Source of the DNA: Escherichia coli
GTDB taxonomy: Bacteria > Pseudomonadota > Gammaproteobacteria > Enterobacterales > Enterobacteriaceae
Reading direction: 5' to 3' (one strand)
Assembly: GCF_045037415.1 (NCBI RefSeq)
Contig: NZ_CP173438.1
DNA length: 64,000 bases
In this document: positions 15,101 through 24,100 of the stretch, piece after piece
How positions within the stretch are numbered: position 1 is the stretch's first letter
Layout: the number at the start of each line of letters is the position of its first letter
Program-made: the position numbers

Positions 15101-18100
15101 CCGCCATGCCCCATGGCAGATCTTGCGCAAACCAGAATAGCTCCGCCGCCAGCGCGAGCAGAATCATCCAGAAGAGTGAAAGGTGCGCCAGTCTGGAGAG
15201 GCGCGGCGGCAACGTCTCAGCATCACGCCAGAGCAATGCCCCCGCAGCGGGTAACGCCAGACACCAGGCCAGATTCTGCCAGCCCGCAGCAAAAATCTCA
15301 TGTTGTGAAATTTGAGACAGCAGCATCACCAGCATCGTCGGCCACAGCAACCATTTGCTGACATCCAGCTCCCACCAGGCCAGACGACCAGAGACAATCC
15401 GCCAGCCCCAGACCGATATCGCCATTAACGCCAGCACGCCAGACAGCACCAGCGAGTCCTTTTTCAGCACCAGTTGCGATGCCCCAATGAGCGCGATTAT
15501 CCAGAAGATCAAACCGCCAGCCAACAGAACCCAACTACCCTGCAACTGAATATTGCGCCACAGCCAGGCGGCAGCCAGCCAGCTGAGGCTGAGTACGGCA
15601 AAGATTAGCACCAGAGAAAGCGCGCTCATCCCGTTCATCTGCGCCCACAGCGCGCTGCACACTGCCAGCACCAGCAGCGCAGTGCCGCTATAGCTCATAC
15701 GCCGCTGCTGCTGTTGCACGCCCAGCCAGAGGATGCCGAGACCTTCCAGCGCCCAGGCCATCGCCGTCCAGCGGGCCGAAAGCGCCAGTGGGATAGCGAG
15801 CGTGGTAAATGCCCCACCCAGCGCCAGCGCCGCCAGCACCAGCGGCCTCCCCAAAGAGGGATAGCGACGCAATGCAAGCCATGCTAACGCCAGATAGAAA
15901 CCGCCGTAACCCAGCGCGCTAAGCGCCGGACCATATTCCATATGCCGGGTTATGGCGTACTGCATGCCAAAACCGACCAGCGGCGATGCAAACAACAGCA
16001 CGCCATCAATAATCTGCTTACCTTTCTCCTGTGCTCGTAGCGATAGCGCCACGCTCAGCACACCAAAAATGATCGTATTGGCTATCAGGAAAAGCTGACT
16101 GCTCAGGTAATACTCTGATCGATAGCCGTCGAGTCCCCAAAGACCGCCGATACCAAAGGTAAATAACAGGCCAAGCAGATTAAGCTCGCGCCAGTGTTGC
16201 CAGATGCTGATGGCGAGAATACCGACGGAAAGCAGAAGGTAGAAAGAGAAGAGCGCCACATGACTACCGCCGCCGGTGGAAAGCAACAGCGGTGCCAGAT
16301 AGCCACCGATACTTGCCAGCATCGCGAGGCTGAGCGCTTTTTGCATAATCGCCAGTCCCACGCTCGCCGCGCAAATCGCCACCAGTAATGCAAACGCCAG
16401 CGTCATCGGCAGCATCTGCCAGAGCCAGAATGCGCCAAAAACGGTGAGATAGAGCGTCCCCGTAGCTCCACCCTGTATGATCAGCGCATAAACCAGCTGT
16501 TTATGCCGCAATCGCCAGCCCACTACCAGCAGGGCAATCGCAAACAGCGAAGTCGCCACCAGACGTAGCTCAAGCGGGAACAGGGAGTGTTCAACCGTAT
16601 AACGCAGCAGGAAGGAGAAGCCAAGGAAGAGAAGCAGAATACCCAGCTTTGCCAGCGGGTTGCCCTGCATAAACCAGCGCACCAGGGACGACATCACCCC
16701 ACCAAAAGCGGAAGATTGTTCGACCGCTGGTGTGGGTAGCGCCTCGTTTTGCGGCTTCGGTTGTGGACGCCAGGGGTCAACGGACTCAGGCGTGACATCA
16801 GCCACAGGCTCCGACAGCACGATGTTAACCGCAGGCGAAGACGTTTCAACAGGCACAACCATCTGCGAAACACTCTGCGGCACAGTTGTTACCACTGTGG
16901 CGGGTGCTTCAGTCACACCGCGCTGCTCAAGCACCTCCACCCGGCGACGCAGGGTCGCCAGCTCAGAACGAACAGCCGTGCTGCGGCTGAGCGCGATAAT
17001 CGCGAGGATGGGAACCACCACCAGTGCGAAGAATAAAGCAATGCAGCCAAGGGTTAGCAGCTCATCCATGTTTCCACCGTCGCGGTATAAAGATGGGTCA
17101 GAATGACACAAACTGTTGTATTTGTGCCATATGCATTAGCAAAGCGAGCCGCTTTTTCAGAAAATACCATCAACCTCTGCACGCAGGCAGAAACTGTAAA
17201 ATGCGATTAAAACGCAAAGCACGAACAACCGGGCATTCGTGACCAGAATGTATCTCTGTTTACTTTAAGTGATGAGGTTTTGGATCTACGCACTACTCTT
17301 CCGCTTCTGAGGCATTGCTGCAGCTCTTTTTTTAAAGCTCCCCGGGTTGGTATAAAAAGCGTTTTATAAATCATTTCATGTGACACATGCATTTCCTGAT
17401 TATCGGGATAACAGCGTTTTAGCCAACCGCCAATTTGTTCCGGCGACCAGTCCTGATGCATCTTCTCTGCAATGATTTTACACAATGTGGGGCTTTCAAT
17501 TAGCTTGCAAGGTTTTGGTCTCAGAGCATTTTCCCACGCAGCAGGATCGGCTTTTGCTGCACGGTATTGTTTTGCACCGCCGTGCCTCCTGATCTCGCGG
17601 CTAATCGTTGAGGGAGCTATTGATAATTTAGCAGCGATGTCCCTGATGATGCGTTTTGCTACCAGTCCTCTGGATATCTCCTCTTTTTCATCAAGCGAAA
17701 ACGCTAACCGGTGCCGCTTTCGCACGGGAGGACGGTAGCCACCGGCCTGGTGGATTGTAGGCATGATAGTAGAGTGAAATCTGTCGAACATTCTGGGGGA
17801 TATCATGCAGGGAATCACCTTGCTTATATCTGTCCCAAATAATCACCTTTTGCTCTGGCGTGTAGTTAATACGAGTTCTTCGTTTCATGGCAACGTCCCC
17901 CTTGATTAGGGACAGCGTTGCATCGACCCGTTGAACTCACAGCTCAAAGCGGACATGGATCACTTACTGGATATGCACATCGTTCCAATGCGCATATCCC
18001 ATTATGATTGACAACGTAATACGCCCTTATCAGAGATCGCAGATAGTTAAATTCAAGAAAGTAAGCTAGTCCTTCACTTTCATCGTGAAACCACGCCAGT

Positions 18101-21100: not shown

Positions 21101-24100
21101 GATATAAAGCGTATTCCCCGGTTACATCCACCCCCTGATAATGTAATTGCTGAGCGGTAGAACAATATGCACAGGCCCTGCTCCCGCAGGGAATGTATTT
21201 ACAACGCTCAAGGATAAGCGCCAGTTTAGCGTAGTTGCTCCACATGTCATCGGCCCCGCCGCAATCCTGTATGAGAATATTGGACACTGTATATGCAGAT
21301 GCGTAGTTAAGCTTACGTATCCGTAAACGCTGCTCCTTTAACACTGCTGATATCGTTTCTTGTGATAAACCAACCTGTTTCCCCATAGTTTCGAACCAAG
21401 GAACCAGCGTTTTTTTCGCAGAACTGGTTTTCGATTTTATCTCTTTCATTTCATTCTCCCGCCTGCATACGGCTGTTAACCCAGTTATTGATATCACTCT
21501 CCAGCCAGCCTACCGCCCGGCCATTGTCGCCCGTTAGCCTCTTTGACAAAGGAAAGAATCCTTTCGAGATGAGTCGGTACAACGTCGCTGACGAGTTCCC
21601 CGTCAGATGAAGTACCTCTTTTTTACGCAAAATACGGTTGGTGTTCATGCTTGTGCTCCTTTGAGCTGTTTCAGGAGCGGGTTATTTACAACCACCAAAA
21701 AACGCAAGGATTCACTCAACGATGCCTTCGTTGAGCACGTTAAGGGCATCTTTAATGTGGATGTCATTCGAGATCATCTATTTCTGTCTCCAGAACGGTC
21801 ATATAAAGAAGCAATTTTCACTGAGGCTCAATGGTGATATTTTGTACAAAACACTGTCATGGAGGTGACTATGATTGGTAACCAAAGCAACAAGGCTGAC
21901 GCCAGATGCCACCGGGAACGGAAAAGCAGTAACGAGGTCTTTGAATTTCTGGAGAAGAAGCTTTATCTGGGACGGGATACCCGGCAAAAACTGGCACTGA
22001 TTGCCCGGAAACTGACGGGAGCGGGTTTTAGCCCGGATAAATTCGCTGCGGAGAAAGCGGCAGATGTGCTGAGTGCCTGCGTGAACCACATGTTTAATGA
22101 CCTGCTCAATGAGGGAGAGCCAAACGGGATTTATAGGCCGGAGGAACACCCCATGATAGTCCCGGCCAGGTCCCCTAAGGCACTGGAAATCTATACTGTT
22201 TACCAGCTTGTAAAAGGTCGTTTTGACAAGCTTCATACGGGGGAGTCAGATCGTGAGAAATATGCTTCGGTAGCAGAAAAACTTAATGAGTATGGAATAT
22301 GGAAACCCCGGTTAAAACGACTCTCTGACGGTAAAGAATGGGCGCGTGAGGATGTTGCGTGGATGCTTCAGCCTGAAAATATCAATGCACAAATTAACAT
22401 CCAGAATCAAAAGTACGCGCGGTTGAGTGCTGAAGATGAAACTGAAACCGAGTCTGGCAACGCCTCAACTGCTAAAAACATCTGATGCGCTTGCTGGCAC
22501 TGATCTTCATAGTATCACCACGACAGTCATAGCGCGTCGTCGTGGATATGTCGCTGTGGCCTGCCAACTGGCGGACGGTATTGATATCCACGCCCTGCTC
22601 CAGCAAACGGGTGATGAAGGTGCGCCGCATATCATGCGGGGTAAAACGTGCTATACCTGCCGTTTGCTGTAACTCAGCCAGGATACCCGTTAACCCGGTC
22701 GTAGTCAGCGGTTGGCTTGCGACCTTACCACTGCGCTGAATTCGCCTAAACAACGCACTGTCAGCCTCGTCTGCGCCAACTTTCAGCCACGCACGAATAG
22801 CCTTGTCCACCGCATCCGCCACGTGAATTTCACGGTATTTACGCCCCTTCCCTTGCCTCACCGTCAGGATGCCGTTGTCATAGTCCCGGCGCTCAAGTTT
22901 AACCAGTTCCCCGGCCCGCAGGCCCGTTCCGCAAAGCATCAGCACAATGGCGACATCGCGACAGCGCCGTACAGATTGCGGATGCTGTTTTGCAGCCTGA
23001 ATCAGTACCCGGATTTCCTGCCTGCCCAGCGCCCTTCCCTTGCGCTGGACATCGCCGCTCACGCGCTTAACTGACCGGATACGTGCCAGCGTTTCGGCAT
23101 CCATGTAATTGAGGTTAAAGGCCGTCTGCGCTACGCCCCGGAGTGCTGACAGCGCCATGTTGACCGATGACACGGCGTAACCGTCATCCAGCAGTGCCGC
23201 GCGCACTTTGGCAACGGCGGCGTAGTTAAGTTGTTCCCACGGATAGTCTGCTGCATCCGCACCGTGTTTAAGTATGCTGGCGCTGCGGTTTAACAGGCTG
23301 GTGATACCTCGCCGTCCCGAGGGGGCCAGACCGACAATATACGCATCGAACACGGTGGTTTGCACCACCGGCACGACCTGACGCAACGCTGTCCTGCTCA
23401 TGCGCGTAACCCGCAATAACGTACATTAAACCAAGTAACTTTCAGCATCACACCAGTCCTCGCTCAGCCATCGACACCGTTTCAGTTCCTGCCACGATAA
23501 AGTGATCAAGTAACCGCACATCCAGTATTTCCAGCAGCTCCTGAAGCTTTTTGGTCAACTGGATGTCACACCGGCTGGGTTCAGGCTCGCCGCTGGGGTG
23601 ATTATGGACAAGGATGACGGCGGCGGCGTTATGTTTCAGCACACGCTTAATAACTTCACGGGGGTGAACGCTGACCGAGTTTAGCGTACCCCTGAACAGG
23701 ATTTCGCGGTGCAGCAGCTGATTATGATTATCGAGTAGGATGATGCCAAACTCTTCATGTTCAAGCGGTGCCAGCTCAACCATCACGCACCGTCGAACAT
23801 CATCAGGGGAACAGAGTTGAACCCCACGCTGGTAGTACCGGCTAATAATGTCACGCGCCTGGTCAAGGATACGGGTTTCACGCTGGGTAAACATGGTCAT
23901 GTCAGAACTCCCGTTCAATGAAGTAAATGGCGTCTGGAAACAGCTGGCGGCGGGTTACGCCAGTACGCAGGGAGAAAGCTTTACGGGGCATGGTGGTTCG
24001 CCCGTTGCTGTCGAAGAAGCAGAGCATTTCTTCGTCCATTTTGACCAGAAGGGACCAGTGAAACTGGTCGCTGAGCATAATCAGGCGAGAGTGGTCAGTG

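Follow-up and report, generated by a model that had tools for sequence, protein, structure and literature searches.

We analyzed a 64,000-nt stretch of Escherichia coli DNA (NCBI RefSeq assembly GCF_045037415.1, contig NZ_CP173438.1; hereafter the window, whose numbering is used throughout), and in particular a string of four minus-strand genes in an island between ychF (5268-6359) and dhaR. The string is headed by a gene for an AlpA-family protein, and its last gene encodes a 465-aa protein (Pol) that is, judging from its predicted structure, a highly diverged minimal polymerase of family A (Pol I / T7-like), with the catalytic residues intact and without exonuclease domains. Pol is always preceded by non-coding DNA with a strictly conserved element and, depending on the lineage, a palindrome or a repeat array. 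Weighing these features together, we give about an even chance to the possibility that the AlpA-linked primase-polymerase and an origin in this DNA form a self-contained replication-initiation module of the defence islands at ychF. It should be noted that the four open reading frames (ORFs), the gap of 576 bp and clusters of cysteines in two of the proteins were reported in a preliminary description of this region; the coordinates are confirmed, and the clusters are real and shared, with the pattern Cx5Cx4Cx2C in both the 171-aa and the 284-aa protein. The string consists of the following:

21451-21648, minus strand: AlpA-family small helix-turn-helix (HTH) protein, 65 aa (Pfam PF05930), at the head of the string
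20982-21497, minus strand: 171-aa maximal ORF; in RefSeq 155 aa, from a later start at ~21449 (about 20982-21449)
20040-20894, minus strand: 284-aa protein; Cys4 motif resembling a zinc ribbon, plus an alpha/beta domain of ferredoxin/RRM-like type
19464-20039: ORF-free gap, 576 bp, between the 284-aa and the 465-aa ORFs
18066-19463, minus strand: 465-aa minimal family-A-type polymerase (Pol)

The first protein belongs to the AlpA family (Pfam Phage_AlpA, E = 2.6e-12, 46.9 bits compared to a cut-off of 21), and its homologues, with 31-75% identity, are found upstream of Pol in seven other loci. The 171/155-, 284- and 465-aa proteins are all labelled "hypothetical" in RefSeq and have no match in Pfam, PHROGs, NCBIfam or PADLOC.

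The 465-aa protein

The AlphaFold model of Pol has a predicted local distance difference test score (pLDDT) of 88.5 and a predicted template-modelling score (pTM) of 0.82, and all 46 matches of this model in the PDB (Foldseek, E <= 1e-3) are family-A DNA polymerases. The right-hand arrangement of palm, fingers and thumb typical of family A is present. This model-based evidence for a polymerase appears stronger than the evidence from sequence comparisons. Detection from sequence alone was negative with phmmer, a hidden Markov model (HMM) search of the PDB, Pfam, NCBIfam and PADLOC. Specifically, no match to Pfam DNA_pol_A (PF00476) or RNA_pol (PF00940) was obtained for 30 members of the Pol family, even at E <= 10, and a profile built from the Pol alignment had no match among PDB sequences; the sole hint was PHROG 15971, "DNA polymerase I", at E = 0.1. 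Motifs similar to those of Pol I are visible by eye in the sequence; the stretch TFGGRYYDQAFQNLP resembles the Pol I motif TGRLSSxxPNLQNIP. The domains and key codons are as follows:

19179-19436, minus strand: N-terminal winged-helix domain (residues ~10-95), which matches winged-helix folds
18066-18971, minus strand: polymerase core (residues ~165-465)
18753-18755, minus strand: codon of R237
18678-18680, minus strand: codon of D262
18552-18554, minus strand: codon of K304
18135-18137, minus strand: codon of D443

In the joint alignment of Pol sequences, residues Y226, Y230, R237, Q244, N260, D262, K304, N384, G420 and E422 are invariant, while H442-D443-G444 is nearly so. The residues D262, D443, R300 and K304 are invariant or nearly invariant in sets of 19-30 sequences with identity down to 18%, and the motifs were assigned as D262 (motif A), R300xxxK304 (motif B), QGxE, and H442-D443 (motif C); R237 is located in a beta-hairpin, between the strands 230-232 and 238-240. 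Comparison of Pol with T7 DNA polymerase by hhalign is weak (E = 0.031), yet the alignment seems to be in the expected register: D262 corresponds to D475, K304 to K522, Y312 to Y530, and N267 to the steric-gate residue E480. According to this weakly supported register, the steric-gate Glu (E710 in Pol I, E480 in T7 DNA polymerase) is absent from Pol, and N, S, C, Q or F is found in its place across the family.

Relatives of Pol are few: a search of 5.8 billion protein clusters recovered only 78, all from Enterobacterales and none of them annotated. An exhaustive HMMER search added further relatives with ~25-29% identity over residues 224-458, likewise without a Pfam match. Pairwise dN/dS values of the Pol gene are 0.10-0.20, indicative of purifying selection. 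In many ST131 genomes, either ISEc52 or a frameshift disrupts the gene (the latter splits it in EC958), whereas the copy in the window is intact. A remnant of an IS30-family transposase gene (17207-17888, minus strand) abuts the 3' end of the Pol gene; the observations on this remnant and on the disrupted copies also cover the loci L001 (20692-21861) and L025 (3850-4996).

The non-coding region upstream of the polymerase gene

Non-coding DNA of 345-600 bp is located upstream of Pol in every locus. The features of this region in the window are listed below; the two blocks at 19791-19889 come from an alignment of 17 loci, and their coordinates were verified:

19736-19756, minus strand: core conserved element TTCTACACACAATGGGGGGAG, 21 nt, with the G-run at 19738-19743; proposed de novo start site
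19791-19889, minus strand: two conserved blocks, CCAACTGTCTCGATTTTAACGCAACCGTC (19861-19889) and CCCGATCCTTACCATCAACTGACGAGTTAGCGCAT (19791-19825), flanked by the repeat cluster and the core element
19895-20052: AAAnTGCA / TGCAnTTT sites as inverted pairs; candidate protein-binding (iteron or operator) array
19547-19743, minus strand: conserved leader of two blocks (19706-19743 and 19547-19638) with the direct repeat GAGCG(N0-2)CAGCGAG
19601-19612, minus strand: leader hairpin AGGC-GTCA-GCCT
19562-19587, minus strand: leader hairpin GATTTGC-N12-GCAAATC
19547-19561, minus strand: leader hairpin ATGGGC-GGA-GCCCAT

The most conserved of these features is the core element, with the family consensus of an A/T-rich stretch followed by CTACACA(C/T)(A/T)AT and GGGGGG; the variants seen in all loci are described by CT(A/G)C(A/T)CA(C/T)(A/T)ATGGGG, or, in another notation, by CTACACA(C/T)(A/T)ATGGGGGG. 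The element is located 175-310 nt upstream of Pol in all nine genome loci, and a scan of metagenomes with a 20-nt motif produced 11 loci, with Pol downstream in each of the ten that could be evaluated; thus, the motif precedes Pol in 19 of 19 evaluable loci. There is one copy in the window, compared to zero expected by chance, and the motif was not found in IMG/VR viral contigs. With one copy per window, an att site or a repeated promoter was rejected as an explanation of the motif. On the opposite strand, a sigma-70-like promoter, CTGACC-17-TAGAAT (19729-19757, plus strand), overlaps the core element and is directed antisense towards the 284-aa gene; it is not conserved in the loci L004 or L005.

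The repeat array is a cluster of TGCA sites, seven in 180 nt compared to 0.8 expected from the TGCA frequency in the window (9-fold), and it includes the inverted repeats I2, I4, I5 and I16. The inverted repeat gcagtgg/ccactgc, which had been singled out in the preliminary description, is part of this cluster: its arms, 19951-19962 and 19984-19995, are 12 nt long and 92% complementary. The AT content of the array is moderate (55-62%). The positions of the cluster are kept in related islands with Pol 54-100% identical (group 1), which also have the two blocks at 19791-19889 and the leader in common, whereas loci with Pol 45-54% identical (group 2) have the palindrome TTTCCATTTTTAAAAATGGAAA in its place and a different leader, while the core element is kept. 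A DnaA box was also considered and rejected, because the candidate TTCTACACA matches 8 of 9 positions only in the lineage of the window and lacks conservation in the others.

Identity across lineages is 78-96% in the leader blocks, compared to 29-55% in the spacer between them. Since synonymous sites of the adjacent gene are saturated between the same lineages, this non-coding conservation is beyond that expected by chance. In the hairpin stems, 98.7% of cells pair, compared to 27-41% in slid controls; among group-1 loci, the stems are invariant and the loops variable, the closing pairs covary, and three closing pairs have changed on both sides. These are short local hairpins only: a globally structured leader RNA was rejected (minimum free energy z = 0.25 for the sense and -0.67 for the antisense strand), and so was a conserved 5'-terminal hairpin at the G-run, which is stable in the loci L002 and L005 but not in group 1. 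An Rfam search of positions 17000-23000 at E <= 1 returned a chance match to a microRNA and nothing else. The gap has a single ORF of notable size (97 aa, 19495-19788), which was rejected as a gene, because 1-nt indels within the conserved blocks break its frame in homologues.

Distant homologues of Pol (25-29% identity) are found in phages: one in an 83-kb phage contig, next to genes for a 5'-3' exonuclease, Thy1 and PhoH, and others in Erwinia jumbo phages, near genes for a clamp loader and a resolvase. Both phage homologues are preceded by long repeat-rich non-coding DNA (L003, 9265-10000; L023, 4740-5133); one of these regions has three copies of GATGTGCAnnAnTTTTGGGGG, and CTGTAG occurs five or six times in that of the Erwinia jumbo phage pEa_SNUABM_1 (gp220). 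Association with a cis-acting region upstream may therefore characterize the entire superfamily.

Proposed role in replication initiation, and alternative explanations

The replication-initiation model can be outlined as follows. Expression of AlpA would lead to synthesis of the polymerase, which would dock on the repeat array via its winged-helix domain and initiate synthesis de novo at the conserved element, G being the first nucleotide. The hairpins located just downstream of the element may be single-strand initiation or loading signals, and the 284-aa protein and its truncated 171-aa paralogue may be optional, lineage-specific helpers, for example in binding of the template or the origin. 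Pol would thus be the primase-polymerase of the excised island, as has been predicted for TV-Pols and demonstrated for CCPol-MP of SCCmec. Several lines of evidence argue for this model. Pol occupies the position after AlpA that in CP4-57 is occupied by YfjI (DUF3987) and YfjJ (Rep-like) and in phage-inducible chromosomal islands (PICIs) by pri-rep-ori; its phage relatives are located in neighbourhoods of replication genes; and precedents exist. In Gram-negative PICIs, AlpA activates excision and replication, or the downstream operon, and pri-rep-ori follows AlpA (PMC6092414). TV-Pols are minimal PolA-like enzymes of mobile elements that were predicted to be primase-polymerases (PMC2579912), and CCPol-MP contains an A-family polymerase that primes de novo at a site within the putative origin of SCCmec, with dGTP preferred (PMC7581432, PMC10061031).

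The preliminary description had likened the 284- and 465-aa proteins to YfjJ/YfjI-type proteins of P4-like islands and suggested that the gap could be a regulatory or origin-like region. Its general direction is supported insofar as a polymerase follows AlpA in the replication slot of CP4-57 and PICIs, so that the string is a nucleic-acid-synthesis module, although the families named there, proposed from protein sizes, do not apply (see below). With regard to the gap, conserved repeats, a strictly conserved element and short hairpins were all found, which supports the origin role in part. The combination that would have refuted that description (no similarity to island replication or regulation proteins and no conserved structure in the gap) was not observed.

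Several observations weigh against the replication-initiation model. [quoted passage not shown] The Pol family was not found on genuine plasmids, and its disruption in many ST131 genomes implies that the module is dispensable and decaying, at least there. The covariation in the hairpins corresponds to one or two evolutionary events, and the origin role of the gap is deduced from architecture only. Finally, the absence of the steric-gate Glu (N267) is no less compatible with an RNA-making enzyme than with a DNA primase. A bolder possibility, which we put forward only tentatively and consider unlikely, is that the 465-aa Pol is promoter-directed and would be the smallest such enzyme known in the T7/Pol I superfamily, with de novo starts guided by the winged helix at its own conserved T7-like element (CTACACAnnAT|GGGGGG), independently of the host RNA polymerase and primase. 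The missing steric-gate Glu suggests RNA or mixed primers in this case; if this is true, a defence island would have an autonomous transcription or priming system.

In another reading, the gap carries no information on the site of polymerase action. It could be an AlpA-dependent promoter for the host RNA polymerase (RNAP), followed by a regulatory 5' leader of Pol, with the repeats as operators and the element as a -10 / initial transcribed region; we view this as unlikely, although it accounts for several features. The sequence CA(C/T)(A/T)AT is -10-like, and in L002 a sigma-70-like TTGGCA-18-GATTAT ends just upstream of the core element; the palindromes change in step with the AlpA/Pol lineage, the leader hairpins are possible attenuators, and AlpA activates the downstream operon in PICIs (PMC6092414). 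However, consensus scans of the window, L004 and L005 revealed neither a sigma-70 promoter on the Pol strand nor a conserved intrinsic terminator (a weak candidate at 19533-19546 is absent from the scans of L004 and L005). In addition, the ~21 contiguous conserved bases of the element include positions that are normally free in sigma-70 promoters, and a plain promoter would not usually have conserved direct repeats and blocks ~200 nt into its leader. An antitermination model based on "AlpA" of P. aeruginosa was rejected, since that protein is larger and Q-like (PMC9371919), and the model is not transferable to the 65-aa AlpA.

Another alternative, distinctly unlikely in our estimation, is that Pol is a promoter-specific mini single-subunit RNAP, and the element is its own promoter for the leader and the gene (perhaps also for downstream cargo), without participation of the host RNAP. 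The layout of the core element is similar to that of T7-group promoters (an A/T-rich stretch, CACnAT, and a start at a G-run), and in L002 the element matches the T7 consensus in 16 of 22 positions. We scored the loci with a position weight matrix (PWM) derived from 17 annotated T7 promoters: the element had rank 3 among 127,956 positions in the window, and ranks from 1st to 31st in other loci. The replacement of the steric-gate Glu by N/S/C/Q and the lack of a canonical sigma-70 promoter before Pol in the window, L004 and L005 point in the same direction. Conversely, the score of the element is 7.6 bits, compared to 26-39 bits for genuine T7 promoters, and two unrelated positions in the window have higher scores; therefore, we treat the likeness to T7 promoters as a resemblance only. 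Moreover, T7-type enzymes have many promoters, whereas there is only one promoter-like copy per island, and the orientation of genes downstream of Pol does not consistently agree with that of Pol. The smallest enzymes known of this kind are about twice as large as the 465-aa protein (or more, as compared to 832-1095 residues in the structural matches), which has no obvious specificity loop and no Pfam RNA_pol match, and the likeness of its TFGGRYYDQAFQNLP stretch to the Pol I motif also weighs against an RNAP.

It is very unlikely, in our view, that Pol is an anti-phage or abortive-infection effector that makes nucleic acid upon infection, similarly to defence-associated reverse transcriptases (DRT) or AbiK, with the non-coding region as an RNA or DNA template or cofactor. 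The island does carry Lamassu and a type I-C retron, relatives are found with Gabija, restriction-modification (R-M) systems and deaminases, and a conserved structured non-coding region beside a polymerase recalls retron and DRT loci. However, Pol is part of the invariant backbone and not of the variable cargo, neither PADLOC nor Rfam has a match, the leader has no fold-stability signal, and linkage to AlpA and an integrase is typical of replication modules. As for the original suggestion, prompted by similar sizes and the same position after AlpA, that the 284- and 465-aa proteins are of the YfjJ/YfjI type (Inovirus-Gp2-like / DUF3987) known from P4-like islands, it has virtually no probability, because there is no sequence similarity (BLASTP of the 465-aa protein against K-12 YfjI, E >= 9; of the 284-aa protein against YfjJ and YfjH, E > 6; hhalign of the 284-aa family against YfjJ, probability 1%), the window proteins match neither the family of YfjI (DUF3987) nor those of YfjJ (YagK_YfjJ_C, formerly Inovirus Gp2, and REP_ORF2-G2P), and the fold of the 465-aa protein is that of a family-A polymerase.

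Comparison with known systems

Among the closest known systems are TV-Pols, which we compared by the features described by Iyer, Abhiman and Aravind in 2008 (PMC2579912). Similarly to Pol, these are stand-alone minimal polymerases of the Pol I / T7 superfamily, 400-600 aa long and without nuclease domains; the thumb helices, the Arg in the beta-hairpin, the two catalytic Asp residues of the palm and RxxxK of the fingers, i.e., the features of the minimal domain, are all found in the 465-aa Pol. TV-Pols are encoded by integrase-bearing mobile elements in hot spots with restriction and defence genes, and a primase-polymerase function is predicted for them. The differences are that Pol has no fused or adjacent D5-like helicase, its N-terminal domain is a winged helix while that of TV-Pols is all-helical, its family is limited to islands of Enterobacterales and ~25% identical phage relatives, and the strictly conserved upstream element has no described counterpart in TV-Pols.

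The CCPol-MP primase of SCCmec and the PolA-SSB primases of Bacillota (Bebel 2020, PMC7581432; Rice 2023, PMC10061031) likewise have an A-family core, in a shortened enzyme without exonuclease activity that is encoded by an integrative island. The enzyme works, or is proposed to work, at an adjacent non-coding origin that has short repeats, with G preferred for de novo starts, and Pol would share both features. However, CCPol requires the OB-fold partner MP, encoded downstream, and then the helicase Cch2, neither of which is present in the window module, where the optional partners would be upstream-encoded zinc-ribbon / ferredoxin-fold proteins. Furthermore, CCPol keeps the steric gate (E174) and is detected as PolA from sequence, whereas the Pol of the window has N267 and is missed by Pfam.

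With Gram-negative PICIs and CP4-57-like elements, the island has in common an integrase, AlpA at the head of a unidirectional operon with replication functions, and repeat-bearing non-coding DNA, here a candidate origin, beside the replication gene. PICIs have been described as having int, alpA and pri-rep, an origin in which iterons flank an AT-rich stretch, and genes for packaging or interference (PMC6092414), of which the integrase and alpA are present in the window. Instead of a primase-helicase (pri-rep, P4 alpha, DUF3987), there is a family-A polymerase and no homologue of pri-rep; the non-coding region is upstream of the gene and not downstream, as in PICIs; and neither capsid nor packaging genes were identified within the module, although packaging genes were not searched for systematically. 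Pipolins (PMC11551731) are also integrative defence islands, some of them at ychF, with a self-priming DNA polymerase as the hallmark core gene, but their primer-independent piPolB belongs to family B and is unrelated to Pol in sequence and fold family. Our literature search found no publication describing the 465-aa Pol family. Overall, this family resembles TV-Pol and CCPol, and is distinct in the lack of linkage to a helicase or SSB, in being invisible to sequence models, in the N-terminal domain and partners, and in the start-site-like element.

Accessory proteins, island context and distribution

The 284-aa protein has the Cys4 motif at C69/C75/C80/C83, and its fold is ferredoxin-like, not an OB-fold. 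The 171-aa protein is a truncated paralogue, as indicated by alignment, that retains the N-terminal helices and the Cys motif; phmmer links it weakly to members of the 284-aa family (E ~3e-4, small database). According to tblastn and phmmer searches of the related loci, L004 and L006-L009 have homologues of the 284-aa protein (39-42% identity) immediately upstream of the gap, often with one or two more tandem paralogues, whereas L002, L005 and L010 have none. With zero to three copies per locus, genes of this type are accessory and lineage-specific. In one E. coli protein (P0044, 460 aa), a natural deletion has removed the entire non-coding region and joined Pol (100% identity over 79% of its length) to the N-terminal third of the 284-aa protein (98% identity, 33% of the length).

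Further features of the island are:

6574-7749: P4-type integrase
21859-22485, plus strand: 208-aa protein (204 aa in RefSeq), divergent from AlpA

The 208-aa protein has no significant domain match in Pfam, PHROG, NCBIfam or PADLOC. Its homologues, with 25-56% identity, occupy the same divergent position in L002, L005 and L007; it is possibly a member of the module, e.g., its regulator.

The 4-kb region is present in 611 of 5426 complete E. coli genomes (~11%), nearly always on the chromosome; a plasmid replicon was rejected, since the only plasmid matches are two very large records (377 and 542 kb). The family is present in only 5 of ~100,000 species-representative genomes, and the same backbone is located at ychF in Serratia, Pectobacterium, Yersinia, Budvicia, Edaphovirga and others. 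The order of the backbone is P4-type integrase, variable cargo, Pol, gap, zero to three 284-like genes, AlpA, a divergent gene for a ~200-aa protein, and then RadC, DUF2787 and HTH_35. Thus, Pol is found in the invariant backbone, while the cargo varies among Gabija, R-M systems, a deaminase, Lamassu and a retron.

In the window, the island carries Lamassu, a type I-C retron and a reverse transcriptase (RT) of the group-II-intron type. The first two are minus-strand defence cargo (28268-33814), with LmuB (28268-30175) and LmuA (30668-31807) of Lamassu separated by a 175-aa ORF and named ABC-three-component system in RefSeq, and with the RT-Toprim of the Ec67-like type I-C retron at 32042-33814. 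The 364-aa RT (9203-10297, plus strand; Pfam RVT_1, E = 6.7e-35) is encoded just inside the island, near the P4-type integrase; its best PADLOC models are a generic RT and the group-II-intron-type 'HEase', and it possibly represents the remnant of an intron or serves as a defence RT. A second tyrosine recombinase (314 aa) and RadC are encoded beside the module (22472-23918, minus strand); this arrangement is also found in L006 but not in L002, L004 or L005. In L002 (8651-11374), the unit of a 212-aa protein gene, AlpA and Pol is inverted relative to the DUF2787 block. This inversion and the patchy presence of the recombinase suggest that the unit is a movable or invertible cassette within the island.

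Implications

These results fill an annotation gap: a gene that is found in ~11% of complete E. coli genomes and is called "hypothetical" everywhere encodes, on the structural evidence, a polymerase of the Pol I / T7 superfamily beyond the reach of Pfam and HMMs. The idea of a family-A polymerase as the own primase or replicase of a mobile element would be widened from SCC elements of Bacillota to defence islands of Enterobacterales. The 21-nt element and the small enzyme offer a two-component system for the study of de novo initiation in family-A polymerases, and a compact polymerase with sequence-specific initiation may be of value as a tool. If confirmed, the replication-initiation module would explain how ychF islands with Lamassu, retrons, Gabija or R-M systems amplify or move.

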